A stretch of DNA of 64,000 bases from a virus (taxonomy: Duplodnaviria; Caudoviricetes): the IMG/VR virus record IMGVR_UViG_3300020388_000011, positions 32,001 to 96,000 of that record; one strand, written 5' to 3'. A program made the translations under genes and the position numbers. Of the stretch, positions 31,102 through 46,575 are shown in pieces (positions within the stretch are counted from its first letter, which is position 1; each line of letters begins with the position of its first letter). The notes beneath the pieces were generated by a model that did not search any database, had not been told where the DNA came from, and saw nothing but the letters and a program-made list of their open reading frames with translations.

Positions 31102-31812
31102 ATGGCTCTTCCAAAGATCGCCAAGGTGACCCATGAAGCCATTGTGCCTTCTACGGGTAATAAAATTAAGTTCCGTCCTTTCCTTGTTAAGGAAGAAAAA
31201 GTTCTTATTTTAGCTCGTGAGTCTAATGATCAAGCTGAAATGGTTAGGGGAATTAAAGATGTTATTGAGGCTTGTGTACTTACTAAAGGATTTTCTACAG
31301 AAAATCTAGCAACTTTTGACATTGAATACTTATTCCTATCTATCCGTGGCAAGTCTATTGGAGAAGATGTTGAAGTTATTATTACTTGTCCAGATGATGG
31401 TGTTACTCAAGTAACCCAGACAATTTACTTGGATGAGGTCAAAGTTGTTTTTGATGATGAGCATTCAGACAAAGTTAAAATTGATGATACGTACTCTATC
31501 CAGATGAAGTATCCTAATATTGAAACTGTTATGGGTGCAGATCAAGAAGACATCAGTATTACGGATAGCCTGGAACTAATCGCATCCTGCATTAGTATGA
31601 TTTTCTCTGAAGAAGAGTCCTGGGCAGCAACCGAATCATCAAAGGAAGAGTTGATTGAGTGGATAGAAGATTTAGAGCCAAAGCAGTTTGAAGGAATTGA
31701 AAAGTTCTTTACAACAATGCCCAAACTAAGTCATACCATTCAGGTTACTAATCCAGAAACTAAGGTGACTAGTGATGTTGTACTTGAGGGGCTAGGATCT
31801 TTTTTCGCATAA
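31102..31812 (+). CDS. gp26: Baseplate hub assembly protein
   Basis: MALPK, KFRPFLVKEEK.L, FDIEYLFL.IRGKS.GE, CPDD, FF.TMPKL and LEGL.SFF motifs. Confidence 0.9.
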   Translation: MALPKIAKVTHEAIVPSTGNKIKFRPFLVKEEKVLILARESNDQAEMVRGIKDVIEACVLTKGFSTENLATFDIEYLFLSIRGKSIGEDVEVIITCPDDGVTQVTQTIYLDEVKVVFDDEHSDKVKIDDTYSIQMKYPNIETVMGADQEDISITDSLELIASCISMIFSEEESWAATESSKEELIEWIEDLEPKQFEGIEKFFTTMPKLSHTIQVTNPETKVTSDVVLEGLGSFFA

Positions 31813-31814
31813 GT

Positions 31815-31985
31815 ATGGCTCATGAAGATCTTGAGTCATACTATAAAACAAACTTTGCACTTATTCAACACCATAAATACAGTCTTAGAGATATTGAAAA
31901 TCTAATCCCATGGGAAAGAGATATTTATGTCACTCTACTAAAGAACTGGATTGAGGAAGAAGAACAGCGCATAGCACAACAGTAA
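31815..31985 (+). CDS. gp51: Baseplate hub assembly catalyst (56 aa), not in the ORF track
   Basis: Translated by hand as MAHEDLESYYKTNFALIQHHKYSLRDIENLIPWERDIYVTLL..., the cyanophage gp51 signature. Confidence 0.85.
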   Translation: MAHEDLESYYKTNFALIQHHKYSLRDIENLIPWERDIYVTLLKNWIEEEEQRIAQQ

Positions 31986-31993
31986 TACTACAA

Positions 31994-33910
31994 ATGAGTT
32001 TATTTGGAGCTGCTAATTCAGGTGTTGATCCTCAATCGGGGGCATACCTGACAAAACAACAAAGAATCGCTATGTTCCGCGCTTCACGTGGGATGGGTGG
32101 TGGAAATAGTGGTGGATCCAATAAAGACGGTGGCGTACAGCCAAAATCGGCTATTGTTGTTGCTAATAAATTTGCAACTATAACGCAGACATTAAATAAT
32201 AATTTTCAACAATCAGCAACTAATATTTCTGATCAGGCTCAGAGTAATAAAAAGTCTATTGAAAATCTTTATAGAATTATCTCTGACAAGAGAGATCAAG
32301 AATTAAAAACTGAAAAGCAAGAGACTAGACAAGCTTCATTACAACTTGAAAAGAATAAAAGAACAGCAAGAGAGAATTTTGTTGAGGGATTGTCCAAGGC
32401 TGCTGCCGCAGCACTAGTACCACTACAGAAAACTGCCAATGCCGTAACCGGAAAGGTTATGAGTTTTTGGGATAAACTGAAAAGATTATTATTACTATTA
32501 GGTGGTGCTTGGCTGGTTGATAATCTACCAGAAATACTCGATAGTATTAAGTCATTTGATTTAAGTATTGATAGTTTTAGTACCGCTGTTGCTGGCATAT
32601 TGCCAAATGTTCGTGGTATTTTTAATATATTTGATGGGATTGTAAGGGGAATATTAAGAGGTGTTAGGAGGGTTGGATCTACTGCTTTTAGAATTGCTGC
32701 TAAAATCGGTGGTACAGCATTTAGAATTGCTAGAAAAGTATTTGACTCAATAATTGATGTAACATCTAGAGTCACTGGTGCAATATTTAATGGGATAAAA
32801 AAATTAGGAAGTAAGTTATTTGATTTATACAAGAGTGCCAAAAATACTCTTAGTGGTGGTCTTAAATCTGCCCAAGCTGCTAAAAATGCCAAGGTAACTA
32901 AACCAAAGGGATTATTTGGGAATATTGTTGATAAGTTGAGGCAGGGTGGGAGTAAAGTTAAATCTTTTGCTAGTAATGTTGGTGGTAAACTTGGCTTTGA
33001 TAAGATGCGCGAGGGTGCTGGTAACTTTATGCGTGGATTTACAGATTTCACAGACAAGGCAATGGAGAAATTAAATCCATTAAAAAGTTATGCGGTAAAG
33101 GAAGGTATTGCGGAAGGTAATCCCACAGGTAGACTAAAAGGAATAAAGAATCTCCTAACGAAGGTCTTTAATGCAGCTGGTATCGCTAGTACGGCAGGTA
33201 ACAAGTTACTAACAGGTATTGCAAAAATAGCAAGACCTCTTTTGAGACTTCCTGGAGTTGGTATTGCGGTTGATATAGCACTCAATAAAGCAGGTGGTCA
33301 AGGTAATCAAGAGGCTCTTATTAGAGGACTTGCTTCTGGTATTTCCGGTATGGTGGGAATGAAAGCTGGTGCTGCTATTGGTGCTGGTATTGGAACCGTA
33401 GCAATCCCAATTCCCGGTCTTGGAACTGGTATTGGTGGCATTTTAGGTGGTCTTATTGGTAGTATTCTTGCCGCAAATACAGCTGATGCTTTGGCTAAAG
33501 CTGGGATGACGATGGCTGGAATGGAAACCACGTCTGATGAGACGATGGCTGCTAATTATGGTAATATTATTGAAAATATTACTAACAATAATAATACAGC
33601 TACGGTTACTCCTGCCTCAGATAATAAAACAACTCACCCCGACAAGTCTATTAAAATTACTCCAGGAGATCGTATCGATGCTGGTAGCTTTAGTACACCA
33701 GATGGAATGCAATTGTCTGGTGGTCTTCCAGCTAGTACGTTTAACTTGCAGGAGCTTCCTCCAATTATGACCCGTATGCAAAAAGAGCAGCCAGAAGAAA
33801 TTCTTCCACAGCAGGAAGTTAAACCAATTAATACTAGAGATCCCCAGACTGATATTTACAGACACCTTGCTGGTAAGATATATCAGTTAACTGAGGTAGG
33901 TGCTAACTAA
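31994..33910 (+). CDS. Tape-measure-like / baseplate-associated helical protein
   Basis: Long amphipathic helices, a coiled coil and a glycine-zipper hydrophobic segment (GAAIGAGIGT..IPIPGLGTGIGGILGG). Positioned after gp26/gp51. Confidence 0.55.
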   Translation: MSLFGAANSGVDPQSGAYLTKQQRIAMFRASRGMGGGNSGGSNKDGGVQPKSAIVVANKFATITQTLNNNFQQSATNISDQAQSNKKSIENLYRIISDKRDQELKTEKQETRQASLQLEKNKRTARENFVEGLSKAAAAALVPLQKTANAVTGKVMSFWDKLKRLLLLLGGAWLVDNLPEILDSIKSFDLSIDSFSTAVAGILPNVRGIFNIFDGIVRGILRGVRRVGSTAFRIAAKIGGTAFRIARKVFDSIIDVTSRVTGAIFNGIKKLGSKLFDLYKSAKNTLSGGLKSAQAAKNAKVTKPKGLFGNIVDKLRQGGSKVKSFASNVGGKLGFDKMREGAGNFMRGFTDFTDKAMEKLNPLKSYAVKEGIAEGNPTGRLKGIKNLLTKVFNAAGIASTAGNKLLTGIAKIARPLLRLPGVGIAVDIALNKAGGQGNQEALIRGLASGISGMVGMKAGAAIGAGIGTVAIPIPGLGTGIGGILGGLIGSILAANTADALAKAGMTMAGMETTSDETMAANYGNIIENITNNNNTATVTPASDNKTTHPDKSIKITPGDRIDAGSFSTPDGMQLSGGLPASTFNLQELPPIMTRMQKEQPEEILPQQEVKPINTRDPQTDIYRHLAGKIYQLTEVGAN

Positions 33911-35862
33911 TGGCTAATCCCGCTGTCGCAACAAAAGCAATAGGAATTGCTAAAACTTTAGTAAGAGGTTCAAAATCTTTTCTTAAAGGAGTAGCTTCTA
34001 CTTCCAATTCTGTCATATCATCTACTGGAGATAAAATTAAAGCTACAAGTTTAAAAATTAAAAATGAAAATCTAAGTCAGAGGAGAAAGGAGAGAGATAC
34101 TGAGGAGCTTGAAAGAAGAGAAAGTAGGGAAAAGAAGAGAGAGAAAGGAATTGCACCTGCAGCAACTAAACTTGTAGATGTAGTTGTTAAAAAACCATTA
34201 GCTTCTTTATGGAAGCTTATAGCTGCTTGGGTTGTTGATAACTTACCTAAGATAATTAAGGAGGTTGAAATTTTTATTAAGAAGGTAAAAGTATTTACTG
34301 GATTTGTGAAAAGAGCTATTACTTCAGTAGGATCCACATTTAAGTCTCTTGGTAAAATTTTGAGTGCCTTTGTAAAAAATATAAAGGAGTTTGATTTTAC
34401 GGATAAATCAGGCAGGATTGAAACTGCTAAAAAAGAATTGGATGAAAATCTTGAGGATATATCTACATCCGTCAGTGAAATGGGAGCAGTCTGGGGAAGA
34501 GAGGAGGAGGAGCTAGATTATATTCTAGAGAAATTTAAAAGTGAGGATAATGTAAAAAAAATACGTGCTGAACTTGATAAAGAATTTAAAGATGAGGAGC
34601 CAGCTGCCGAACCACAAACACCTGCTGTTGGCAAAGACTCTAAATCTGGCAAAACATCAAATCGTCAGGCACTTTTAGATACAATTTCTTGGGCTGAGGG
34701 AACTTCAGGTCCTAAAGGATATAATACTTGGTTTGGTGGTAGAACTGACTTGGATTTAGCTAAGCTGACCATTAATCAGGTTGTTGCAGAGCAGAAAAAA
34801 AGGCAAAGGAATAAAGATCCCCGAGCAAGGTTCTGGGATGGTACAAAGTATGACTACAGCTTTGCTGTGGGTAAGTATCAAATGTTGGAACCAGGACCTG
34901 CCGCAGTAAAAGCTGGATTGGACCCATCAAAGGCTAAGTTTACTCCTGAAAACCAGGATAAAATGGCTATTGCTCAGTATATAAAAGGACAAGCTGGAAT
35001 GAAGGATTCCGAAATTGATTCCCCTCTTACTAGAGAAGGTATTGATAAATTAGCTCCTGTTTTTGCTTCTTTCCCGAATCTTATGGGTCCCGATAAATTC
35101 GGTAAAGTTGGAACAAATAGTAGTTTCTATGGGCAAGGTGGAAAGAAGGAAAGTGAAATTATGGATTTTTATTCAAAAGCTCAAGGGGCATCATCAAATA
35201 GACCTGAAACTAAACCTAAACCAGCAGTTCAGGCACCACAGCCAGCATCAGCTCCCACTGGAACATCTAAAGTTCAAGATGAGTTTATGGGTGGAACTTC
35301 TGGTAAAATTATAACTACTAGTAAATTCGGTATGAGAGAGCATCCTATACTTGGTGGTTACAAAATGCATAATGGTATTGATCTAGCTCCTCCTGGAGCT
35401 GGTTATAGGGTAGCATTGAAAGCTTCTGGTGAAGTTACTAGAGTAGATTTTGATGGGAGTGGATATGGTTACTTTGTAATTATCACTTCAAAGGAAACTG
35501 GGAAGAGTTATATGTTTGCCCACCTCAAATCCATTTATGTAAAGAAAGGTGATTCCTATACTGGGCAAGCTATTGGTGAGATTGGCAGTACAGGTACAAG
35601 TACTGGTATTCACCTCCATTATGAGGTTTATATTGGTGGTAAGGATGGTCGTGCCATTAATCCAGAACCATATCTTAATATGATAAGCATTGGCAAGAAA
35701 CTTTCAAAGAAAGAAACGGCTGCTCCAAGTAATGTAAATAGTAACTTATCGGGAGCAAAAAACGTTTTGTTGGATGGATTAGCTTCTATCAAGACTGGAG
35801 GAGCAAAGATTATTAATAATACAATATTAATGACCCAGAAAGAATATATTTCTAGCGAATAA
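33910..35862 (+). CDS. Virion protein with lysozyme-like and M23 peptidase domains
   Basis: ALLDTISWAEGT...YN..FGG...A.GKYQ (lambda-type muramidase) and HNGIDL...YMFAHL...STGIHLHYEV (M23). Confidence 0.85.
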   Translation: MANPAVATKAIGIAKTLVRGSKSFLKGVASTSNSVISSTGDKIKATSLKIKNENLSQRRKERDTEELERRESREKKREKGIAPAATKLVDVVVKKPLASLWKLIAAWVVDNLPKIIKEVEIFIKKVKVFTGFVKRAITSVGSTFKSLGKILSAFVKNIKEFDFTDKSGRIETAKKELDENLEDISTSVSEMGAVWGREEEELDYILEKFKSEDNVKKIRAELDKEFKDEEPAAEPQTPAVGKDSKSGKTSNRQALLDTISWAEGTSGPKGYNTWFGGRTDLDLAKLTINQVVAEQKKRQRNKDPRARFWDGTKYDYSFAVGKYQMLEPGPAAVKAGLDPSKAKFTPENQDKMAIAQYIKGQAGMKDSEIDSPLTREGIDKLAPVFASFPNLMGPDKFGKVGTNSSFYGQGGKKESEIMDFYSKAQGASSNRPETKPKPAVQAPQPASAPTGTSKVQDEFMGGTSGKIITTSKFGMREHPILGGYKMHNGIDLAPPGAGYRVALKASGEVTRVDFDGSGYGYFVIITSKETGKSYMFAHLKSIYVKKGDSYTGQAIGEIGSTGTSTGIHLHYEVYIGGKDGRAINPEPYLNMISIGKKLSKKETAAPSNVNSNLSGAKNVLLDGLASIKTGGAKIINNTILMTQKEYISSE

Positions 35863-43443: not shown

Positions 43444-46400
43444 ATGACTTATATTAATAAAAAAGTACCAGCAAATGGATCTCTACGTGTTGTCCGAAAC
43501 GGTCAGTTAGAGTATGCGGGACTTCCATTAAAGAGTGACAAAAACCAAATAGTCACATTCGATGTAAAGAATGATGAATTTGAGTCTACTAACTTAAAAG
43601 ACTTATTGGCTTTAGGTGGGGGTGGTACTGGTACTGCTTTGACTGTGCGAGAATCGCAGGGCTTTGGTGGTACTATTGGTGAAAGTCTATCTAATATTAA
43701 TACAATAACGTTTGATGAAAATACTGGCTTTAATGTAGAAGATGCTGGTAATGGTGAAGCATTTATTAGATTGGGCTCAGCATTTGCTCCTTGGTTTGTT
43801 GCGGATCAAGGAACATTAATACCAGATGGTGAAGAAGCTATCACCTTTGTTGCTGGTGTTGGTATTGCTATATCAACAAAAACTACAAGAACTGGTATTG
43901 GTACTACATTATCTAAAGCAATTATCTTTACGAGTACTGGTGTTCCTGGTCCTCCTGGTCCTGGTGGTGGTGCCACTGGTCCGCAAGGTGCAACTGGTCT
44001 TCAAGGATCCACTGGAGCTAGTGGATTTACAGGTGCCACGGGTTCTACTGGTCCTACTGGTGCCACTGGATTACCCTCTATTATTCCTGGTCCTCCTGGT
44101 CCTGGTGGTCAACAGGGCGCTACTGGTCCCACCGGTCCCCAAGGTTCTACTGGCGTACCAGGCGCTACAGGACCTAGAGGATTTATTGGTGCTAGTGGTG
44201 CCACAGGTCCTCAAGGTAGTACTGGTGTTCAAGGTGCTACTGGTACTACTGGTCCCCAAGGAACTACTGGAGCCACTGGATTTTTTGGTTCAACAGGTGC
44301 TACTGGTCTTAGTGTAATTGGATCTACTGGTGCCACGGGTCCCCAAGGTTCTACAGGCTCAACTGGTGCTACTGGAGTTTTTGGTTCTACAGGGGCTACT
44401 GGTACTGCTGGTCCCACTGGTGCTACAGGGGTAGGTCTTACTGGTGCTACAGGACCTACTGGGTCTACTGGAATTCAAGGCGCAACTGGTCCCCAAGGAA
44501 CTACTGGAGCAACTGGAATTGGCGCTACAGGTGCTACAGGTCCTACCGGTTCTACTGGTGCAACTGGTCCCCAAGGTACAACTGGAGCCACTGGATTTGG
44601 AGCAACAGGACCTACTGGGTCTACTGGGATTCAAGGCGCTACTGGTCCCAGAGGCACTACTGGTGCTACTGGGTCAGGTGGAACAGGTGCTACAGGATCT
44701 ACTGGAATTGACGGCGCTACTGGTCCCCAAGGAACTACTGGAGCTACGGGATTTGGTGCCACAGGACCTACAGGATCTACTGGAATTGAAGGTGCCACGG
44801 GTCCCCAAGGAACTACTGGAGCCACTGGGTTTGGAGCAACAGGACCTACTGGGTCTACGGGAATTCAAGGCGCAACTGGTCCCCGAGGAACTACAGGAGC
44901 AACTGGAATTGGTGCTACTGGGTCTACGGGAATTCGTGGCGCCACAGGATCCACTGGTCTTCAAGGTACCACTGGAGCCACTGGAATTGGTGCTACTGGG
45001 GCTACTGGAATTAGGGGTGCTACGGGAGAGGGTGGATCTTCAGGTGCAACTGGCGTCACAGGAGCAACTGGTGTAGGTGCTACGGGTGCTACTGGTCTTG
45101 CAGGTGCTACAGGTCTCGCAGGTTCTACTGGTCCATTGGGCTCTACTGGAGCTACTGGTGCCCCTGGAACTGGGGGATCTACTGGAATTGGAGGGGCTAC
45201 GGGTGCTACCGGATTTGGTGCTACTGGCGCTACAGGTATATCTGGATCTACGGGAGCGACTGGTTCTCTAGGTTCTACTGGAGCTACTGGTTCTTTGGGT
45301 GCTACTGGTACTCAAGGTGCTACTGGATTGTTGGGTTCTACTGGAGCTACTGGTCCATTGGGTGCTACAGGTGCTACAGGATTAGGTGCTACAGGTCTAA
45401 TAGGAGCTACTGGTCCGTTGGGTGCTACAGGTGCTACAGGATTAGGTGCTACAGGTCTCAGAGGATCTACTGGTCCTACTGGAGCTACTGGTTCTTTTGG
45501 TGCTACAGGTCTTGAGGGTCCTCTGGGATCTACTGGAGCAACAGGATTAGGTGCAACTGGTATTCGGGGTGCTACGGGTCCACTAGGCTCTACAGGTGCT
45601 ACGGGCGCTCCAGGAACAAGTATCAATGTAAAGGGAACAGTACCAACCTTTGCTGATCTACCAACAGTTGGTAATCAGGTAAATGATTTATATTTGGTTG
45701 CTGATGAGGGGGGTGAAGGTTATGTTTGGGATGGTACAGCATGGAATGCTGTTGGTAAAATTCAAGGTCCCACTGGTCCTCAAGGGGCTACTGGCGCAGG
45801 TGCTACAGGTGCTACAGGTCCATTAGGTGCTACAGGTGCTACTGGTCCACTGGGTTCTACAGGTGCAACTGGTGTATTTGATAATACTAGTGATATCACT
45901 ACTACTGGTAATATTGAAGCCTCAATTATTACAGCAACTGTAAAATTTATAGGTGATTTTGATGGTAATGCGTCAAGCGCAGATCAAGCAGACTTATCCC
46001 TTGAATCACAAGTATCAACAGCAGGTGGAACTGATGATGACCATAGAGTTATAATTGTTGATGGTGTTAATGGACCACTCCCACTAGAAAGTGATAATGG
46101 ATTATTTTACAGACCATTGTCAAATACCTTATTTGCTGGTAGATTTATTGGTGAAGGTGTTATTTCCTCTTTTGCTGACGATACTAGTGGCACCCAAGCT
46201 ATATCTAATAGCACAACTTGGATCAATTCAACGTTGTCAGTTTCTATCACAAAGCAATTATCAACTAGTTCTATCCTTGTTCTTGTAAGTCAATCATATT
46301 TGGCTAGTTCTGCGGTTGGGGGGATCAGAATACAGAGGGGAGCCACTACAATTTTGAGTGCTGATGCTGATATTGGAGTATTAAGTGTCACTACTGGTAC

Positions 46401-46575
46401 ACCATTGACTACCACATCTCTATTGAATAGGTGGTCTGCTTCCTACTTGGATTCAACTACATCTACTGGAAATATTACATATTCTACGCAGTTTAGGAGA
46501 AGCTCTGGTAGTGGTTTCTTTGCGACTCAACCATCGGGTAATGTTAGTACTATCCAAGTATTTGAGATTGGCTGA
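43444..46575 (+). CDS. Collagen-like fibre protein B (1043 aa)
   Basis: About 560 aa G-X-Y tract dominated by GAT/GST/GTT/GPT, a YVWDGTAW module and a C-terminal beta-sandwich. Confidence 0.85.

Follow-up and report, generated by a model that had tools for sequence, protein, structure and literature searches.

The gene 26 homolog in the phage DNA examined here very probably encodes a tail (tape-measure) assembly chaperone with a programmed -1 ribosomal frameshift site near its 3' end, from which a short and a long form of the protein would be made. The window, by which we mean the whole stretch of 64,000 nucleotides that was analysed (positions 32,001 to 96,000 of IMG/VR record IMGVR_UViG_3300020388_000011), belongs to a T4-like cyanomyophage and shows about 80% nucleotide identity with Synechococcus phage S-CAM7 across the locus. 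The finding of a frameshift signal is real and well supported, and it is already known in principle. The identification of gp26 and gp51 as tail assembly chaperones of T4-like phages is credited to Vladimirov, Gautam and Davidson (Virology 2022;566:9-15, as cited in PMC10885494 and PMC12846349). Where the paper on phage Adele cites this study, it does so for TAC-N and TAC-NC and for poly-T -1 signals at the end of the TAC-N genes of T4-like phages, a likeness that our locus shares, while a passage of the PRFect paper with the same citation states that in some T4-like phages frameshifting is replaced by a pair of genes, one short and the other longer and fused. The proposal in the first-pass annotation of this DNA that gp26 and gp51 are the equivalents of the lambda G and T proteins is hence supported, but it is not a new idea, and the value of the present work lies in confirming it and in describing the putative stimulatory elements more closely. 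Details that may be new are the SD-like element, the covarying hairpin and the lineages in which gp51 has no start codon. The features of the locus, with the evidence for each, are as follows.

31102..31812, + strand: gp26, the short chaperone form (TAC-N), 236 aa; matches to PF12322 and phrog_150
31786..31790, + strand: SD-like GAGGG, candidate upstream stimulator, 9 nt 5' of the heptamer; conservation
31800..31806, + strand: slippery heptamer T_TTT_TTC in X_XXY_YYZ phase; free third positions invariant in 65/65 distinct sequences
31806..31985, + strand: -1 frame extension, R-I-S and then the gp51 ORF of 56 codons (ATG at 31815), predicted C-terminus of the long form (TAC-NC); match to phrog_634
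31812..31842, + strand: predicted hairpin of 11 bp enclosing the gp51 ATG, 5 nt 3' of the heptamer; fold energy and covariation
31994..33910, + strand: tape-measure-like gene, 638 aa; position, size and glycine-zipper segments

The gp26 ORF ends with TCT TTT TTC GCA TAA, and a reading shifted by -1 on the heptamer continues as TTT TTT CGC ATA AGT ATG GCT up to a first stop codon at 31983-31985. The heptamer, its phase and the open -1 frame that leads into gp51, all of which had been pointed out in the first-pass annotation, were thus confirmed in the sequence. The gp51 ORF (31815-31985, 56 codons) is in the -1 frame relative to gp26, and this frame opens just 4 codons ahead of the heptamer. 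The earlier remark that gp51 has no obvious RBS also holds, as no GGAG-type RBS is found within the 15 nt preceding its ATG. The fusion, which had been estimated at about 290 aa, is predicted to consist of 235 + 59 = 294 aa with the junction ...GLGSFF/RISMAHEDL, where the junction peptide ISMAHEDLESYYK is preceded by ...GSFFR. In profile searches, residues 11-236 of the window gp26 matched positions 6-219 of the 219 positions of PF12322 (T4_baseplate) with an E value of 8e-66, and the protein matched phrog_150 with an E value of 1.3e-71. The window gp51 matched phrog_634 ('baseplate hub assembly catalyst', E 6.2e-29) and, in addition, the C-terminal end (positions 239-277 of 282) of phrog_150, which is the gp26 profile; some members of this family therefore carry the gp51 segment as their C-terminus.

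Taken by itself the heptamer is no more than what chance would provide, but its conservation exceeds chance. The window has 9 copies of TTTTTTC where 13 are expected, and its long plus-strand frames contain 46 in-phase X_XXY_YYZ heptamers. The conservation was assessed in 80 IMG/VR loci whose gp26 proteins are 52-98% identical in amino acids and which comprise 65 distinct gp26 nucleotide sequences. All 80 have TTTTTTC at an identical place in the reading frame, two codons ahead of the stop, and gp51 is in the -1 frame throughout, so that the alignment across Kyanoviridae proposed in the first-pass annotation bears out both the heptamer and its phase, which also extend well beyond this group. 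Three positions of the heptamer are free to change, namely its first base, which closes the codon before the two Phe codons, and the third bases of these two codons, and all three are invariant in the 65 distinct sequences, whereas the third positions adjoining the heptamer vary freely (0.1-0.9 bits). The codon that supplies the first T of the heptamer may be TCT, AGT or GCT, with a change of amino acid as well as of codon family, but it always ends in T. The base that follows the T run is C in 65/65 sequences, despite TTT being the preferred Phe codon in the rest of the same gp26 genes (TTT 458, TTC 213); the other 66 FF dipeptides in these genes are encoded as TTC TTT (40), TTT TTT (16), TTT TTC (5) and TTC TTC (5). 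The signal is likewise found in all five cultured cyanophages P-SSM2, S-CAM7, S-B68, MC09 and P-TIM68. The view that the heptamer is a chance occurrence of no function, with which the 46 in-phase heptamers in the window and the lack of over-representation of TTTTTTC would agree, is effectively refuted by these comparative data, in that the heptamer is conserved across T4-like phage families at saturated synonymous distance, and we attach practically no probability to it.

The nine copies of TTTTTTC are unevenly divided between the strands of the window. The plus strand, which carries almost all of the coding sequence (about 62 kb of long open frames), has a single copy at the frameshift site, and the minus strand has 8, a distribution which suggests that TTTTTTC is avoided in the coding sequence of the window. 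A second in-phase heptamer, TTTTTTG at 44281, is located near the end of an ORF, but it was dropped because that frame is a spurious one nested in a gene for a 1043-aa protein (43444-46575). The latter ORF contains repetitive Gly-X-X (collagen-like) coding sequence, and its GGTGCTACTGG repeats give rise to long spurious ORFs in other frames.

Outside the cyanophages, the signal is present as TTTTTTY/G in T4-like phages of rhizobia, Stenotrophomonas, Pseudomonas and Aeromonas, where the 3' ends of gp26 read as follows.

Sinorhizobium phiM7: AAT TTT TTT (7-T run)
Stenotrophomonas DLP6: AAT TTT TTC
Stenotrophomonas Mendera: GAT TTT TTC
Pseudomonas Milchi: GAT TTT TTC TAA
Agrobacterium OLIVR6: GAT TTT TTC
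Rhizobium RHph_Y68: GAT TTT TTG
Sinorhizobium phiM9: TCT TTT TTG (the residue becomes Leu, the T run is kept)
Aeromonas phages 65 and AS-zj: AGT TTT TTC

Vibrio phage D528 is an exception, which has CTT TTC in place of the heptamer and an overlapping TAATG start. In several lineages, viz. loci L074, L077 and L078 and phages Aeromonas 65, AS-zj, OLIVR6 and Milchi, there is no usable start codon for gp51; CTA stands in place of the gp51 ATG in L074, L077 and L078, and the first start codon of the -1 ORF in the start-less lineages is found 14-33 codons inside the conserved gp51 region. The conserved gp51 frame is nevertheless held open from the heptamer in all of these lineages, and in the absence of a gp51 start, the segment would be made whole there only as an extension of gp26. 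Two such segments have also escaped correct annotation: the start-less gp51-like segment of phage AS-zj (3220-3410 of locus L083) is unannotated, and that of phage 65 (3193-3372 of locus L087) is annotated as a 26-aa hypothetical protein that begins in the middle of the domain.

The heptamer is flanked by two further elements. The upstream one, GAGGG, is invariant or nearly so in the 65 sequences, and 25 of the 27 representatives (<88% identity) use GAG for its Glu, as against 226 of 691 Glu codons (33%) elsewhere in the same genes. By analogy with dnaX of Escherichia coli, GAGGG may function as a stimulator, although it also encodes the conserved Glu-Gly of an LEGL motif, which argues against such a role. 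The downstream hairpin has a predicted energy of -15.6 kcal/mol (z -4.65), and none of 200 shuffled sequences was as stable. In 47 distinct sequences its pairing is retained in 90.7% of the cells, versus 26-45% when the 3' partners are slid, and compensatory changes are seen at three pairs (e.g., U:A to G:C in 14 sequences), with a covariation score that was matched by 0/500 shuffles. When RNAalifold was applied to all sequences, it kept 4 bp of the hairpin, and the support for this structure comes from the per-sequence folds and the pair counting. The L074 group, which has lost the ATG, and the diverged L062 have different hairpins at the same place, and in DLP6, OLIVR6 and Milchi hairpins are predicted 7 nt downstream of the heptamer; in the Aeromonas phages the downstream hairpins were weak or absent. 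A search of the hairpin against Rfam gave sub-threshold chance hits alone (mir-1302, 27.7 bits compared to a gathering score of 62). Against a stimulatory function of the hairpin, it should be noted that it lies within the coding sequence for conserved residues, and it could instead regulate the initiation of gp51.

The -1 signal of E. coli dnaX has three parts, namely an X_XXY_YYZ heptamer (A_AAA_AAG), an SD-like element located about 10 nt before it and a hairpin that follows after 5-6 nt. The arrangement at the end of gp26 resembles it in its parts and their spacing, except that the heptamer is different and that the shift in dnaX shortens the protein whereas the shift in gp26 would lengthen it. 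Together, the SD-like element, heptamer and hairpin probably constitute a dnaX-like ribosomal -1 frameshift signal, in which the two putative stimulators are recognised by their conservation. In the mechanism that we propose, most ribosomes would read TCT TTT TTC GCA and then the stop codon to give the 236-aa short form, and a minority, with two tRNA-Phe on UUU UUC (31801-31806), would slip back by one base. The slipped ribosomes would re-pair on UUU UUU and read CGC AUA AGU AUG..., giving a long form of 294 aa, of which the final 59 residues correspond to the so-called gp51. A pause of the ribosome at the heptamer is probably brought about by the GAGGG and the hairpin, similar to the situation in dnaX, and the hairpin would also bury the gp51 AUG. 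If lambda G/GT is taken as a guide, the product of the neighbouring tape measure gene would be coated by the N-terminal chaperone domain that both forms share, and docking of the complex to the growing tail or hub would fall to the rare C-terminal extension. The more specific proposal that the gp26/gp51 shift of cyanomyophages relies on a full three-part ribosomal signal, in which GAGGG is maintained at a synonymous position, U_UUU_UUC is the slippery heptamer and the gp51 AUG is hidden by a covarying hairpin, is put forward tentatively, as a possibility that is on balance somewhat doubtful. If it is true, the mechanism would be settled as translational frameshifting, and the gp51 'genes' annotated in hundreds of T4-like genomes would represent the tail of a frameshift product and no genes in their own right. 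Such a reading could count as new only if it is absent from the 2022 paper.

The same two proteins could also result from transcriptional slippage, in which one U of the T6 run is dropped during transcription, so that a part of the mRNAs has gp26 and gp51 in a single frame. The conserved element is indeed a homopolymer (6 T, or 7 T in phiM7), and its proneness to error at some level is indicated by three singleton metagenome proteins of 290-300 aa (P0001, P0004 and P0006), in which gp26 and gp51 (PF12322 + PF28602) are present in one frame. However, efficient transcriptional slippage usually needs about 8-9 U, for which six U is short, and the strictly conserved C, retained although TTT is the preferred codon, indicates that the run is kept from lengthening. 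Further, an SD-like element and a covarying hairpin at the spacing of frameshift stimulators have no role in slippage by a polymerase. Due to this dnaX-like layout and the strict C after the T run, a ribosomal slip is favoured, and slippage of the polymerase is considered unlikely. As to their origin, the three singletons probably reflect errors in homopolymer length or rare variants of the T run; the junction in P0001 (300 aa), ...GLGSFFRISMAHE..., is exactly as the frameshift predicts.

A slightly lower probability still is given to the explanation that no fusion is made, with gp51 being produced as a separate 56-aa protein by termination-reinitiation at TAA GT ATG and the T run reflecting the conserved Phe-Phe alone. 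The arrangement of stop, 2 nt and ATG is kept in 77 of the 80 cyanophage loci and would permit the synthesis of gp51 by itself, two genes are annotated in all database records, and FF is conserved at the protein level even in T4 gp26, which has no slippery site, so that a part of the T run is explained in this manner. Conservation of Phe-Phe does not, however, account for the invariance of the synonymous sites of the heptamer, nor does reinitiation account for those lineages where the gp51 frame is kept open from the heptamer without any start codon. In addition, the gp51 AUG would be buried in a stable hairpin, and T4 gp51 is comprised of a full gp26-like domain plus this segment, which points to a C-terminal extension as the natural context of the segment. 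Of these possibilities, a programmed ribosomal frameshift in gene 26 is thus the one that we prefer.

The relationship to T4 itself requires some comment. In T4, genes 26 and 51 are divergently transcribed, and gp26 ends with ...GLKEFFELL, coded by GAG TTC TTT GAG, so that the FF is conserved without a slippery site. Both T4 proteins belong to the same family, with PF12322 matching T4 gp26 (8.8e-64) and, over the whole profile, residues 1-201 of T4 gp51 (E 3.9e-52); residues 147-246 of this 249-aa protein in turn match phrog_634 (1.2e-23). As T4 gp51 consists of a complete PF12322 domain followed by the phrog_634 extension, it is colinear with the predicted fusion and, judging from these profile matches, is a hard-wired version of it. 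In T4 and its close relatives the corresponding two proteins come from a pair of paralogous genes (26 and 51), in contrast to the one gene and predicted frameshift of the present phage. The first-pass annotation had set T4 aside as a phage that is not known to use this frameshift; T4 has no slippery site (TTC TTT), but it does make the long form, from its separate gene 51. Full-length gp51 of the T4 type was found in about 1,375 records, mostly from phages of Escherichia, Klebsiella, Shigella and Acinetobacter. The T4 gp51 has been reported to be required yet absent from particles (PMC3004832).

The structural evidence for a chaperone was obtained with the fused homologue P0001 (79% identical to the window in the gp51 part), which served as a stand-in and was modelled by AlphaFold2 with an alignment of 47 gp26 and gp51 sequences. 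The model has a mean pLDDT of 82.5, with low confidence in the junction region (233-258), and its gp51 part is helical. In an exhaustive VIA-align search of 48,161 PDB chains, the top three matches to residues 1-95 of this model were 3fgx (Z 7.9), 2ob9 (the HK97 TAC, Z 7.4) and 3klu (YqbN, Z 7.1), followed by the next match at Z 5.1 and lactococcal p2 ORF12 at Z 3.3. The first three are exactly the solved phage tail assembly chaperones (PMC9603447), so that the comparison with such structures suggested in the first-pass annotation had a positive outcome. The Z scores are moderate but their pattern is specific, and a TAC fold in the first ~90 residues of gp26 is thereby supported on the basis of the model. 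A Foldseek search of the P0001 model against the PDB gave nothing at E <= 0.001, the family profile gave nothing meaningful against the sequences of solved structures (best E 1.1), and none of gp26, gp51 and the 638-aa protein is represented by an NCBIfam model.

The tail-gene frameshift of lambda, which yields gpG and gpGT, is reportedly conserved among long-tailed phages, and its description is said to go back to Levin in 1993 and to Xu, Hendrix and Duda in 2004. Work on the lambda G/GT frameshift is also referred to in PMC9024508, in a passage that cites it. The likeness of gp26 to lambda G/GT includes the TAC fold predicted for its N-terminal domain, whereas there is no detectable sequence similarity between them, the heptamer is U_UUU_UUC rather than G_GGA_AAG, gp26 has an extra beta-rich domain of ~140 residues, and the extension is only 59 aa. 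With such a frameshift, the T4-like phages, which have long been quoted as lacking a tail-chaperone frameshift of the G/GT type, would join the rule of other long-tailed phages, and the nature of the very small cyanophage ORF called 'baseplate hub assembly catalyst' would be explained. Every record that we inspected either has two genes or misses the second, where the annotation ought to be a single gene with a product of ribosomal slippage. As for the start of gp26, the CDS in the S-CAM7 RefSeq record (539-1111 of locus L093) encodes 190 aa from an internal ATG, and homology to the 236-aa window protein starts 138 nt further upstream; this gene start is probably mis-called.

The tape-measure-like gene that was expected directly downstream is present, by position and size, as the 638-aa ORF, which begins 9 nt past gp51. 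Its product matches phrog_3405 (function unknown) with an E value of 7e-165 and has an Atlas lead (0.89) to the PF25671 T4_Tape_measure cluster in addition to Gly-zipper clusters. It has no Pfam or NCBIfam match, and BLASTP against T4 gp29 was not significant (E 0.43). By its position, size and glycine-zipper segments, the 638-aa protein is tape-measure-like and may be the tape measure. It is followed by a 650-aa gene (33910-35862), the product of which has an N-terminus weakly resembling phrog_3405 (residues 46-159), a lysozyme/endolysin-like middle part and a C-terminal M23 peptidase (PF01551, E 9e-17). The chaperone pair is in this manner succeeded by two consecutive tape-measure-like or cell-wall-hydrolase genes.
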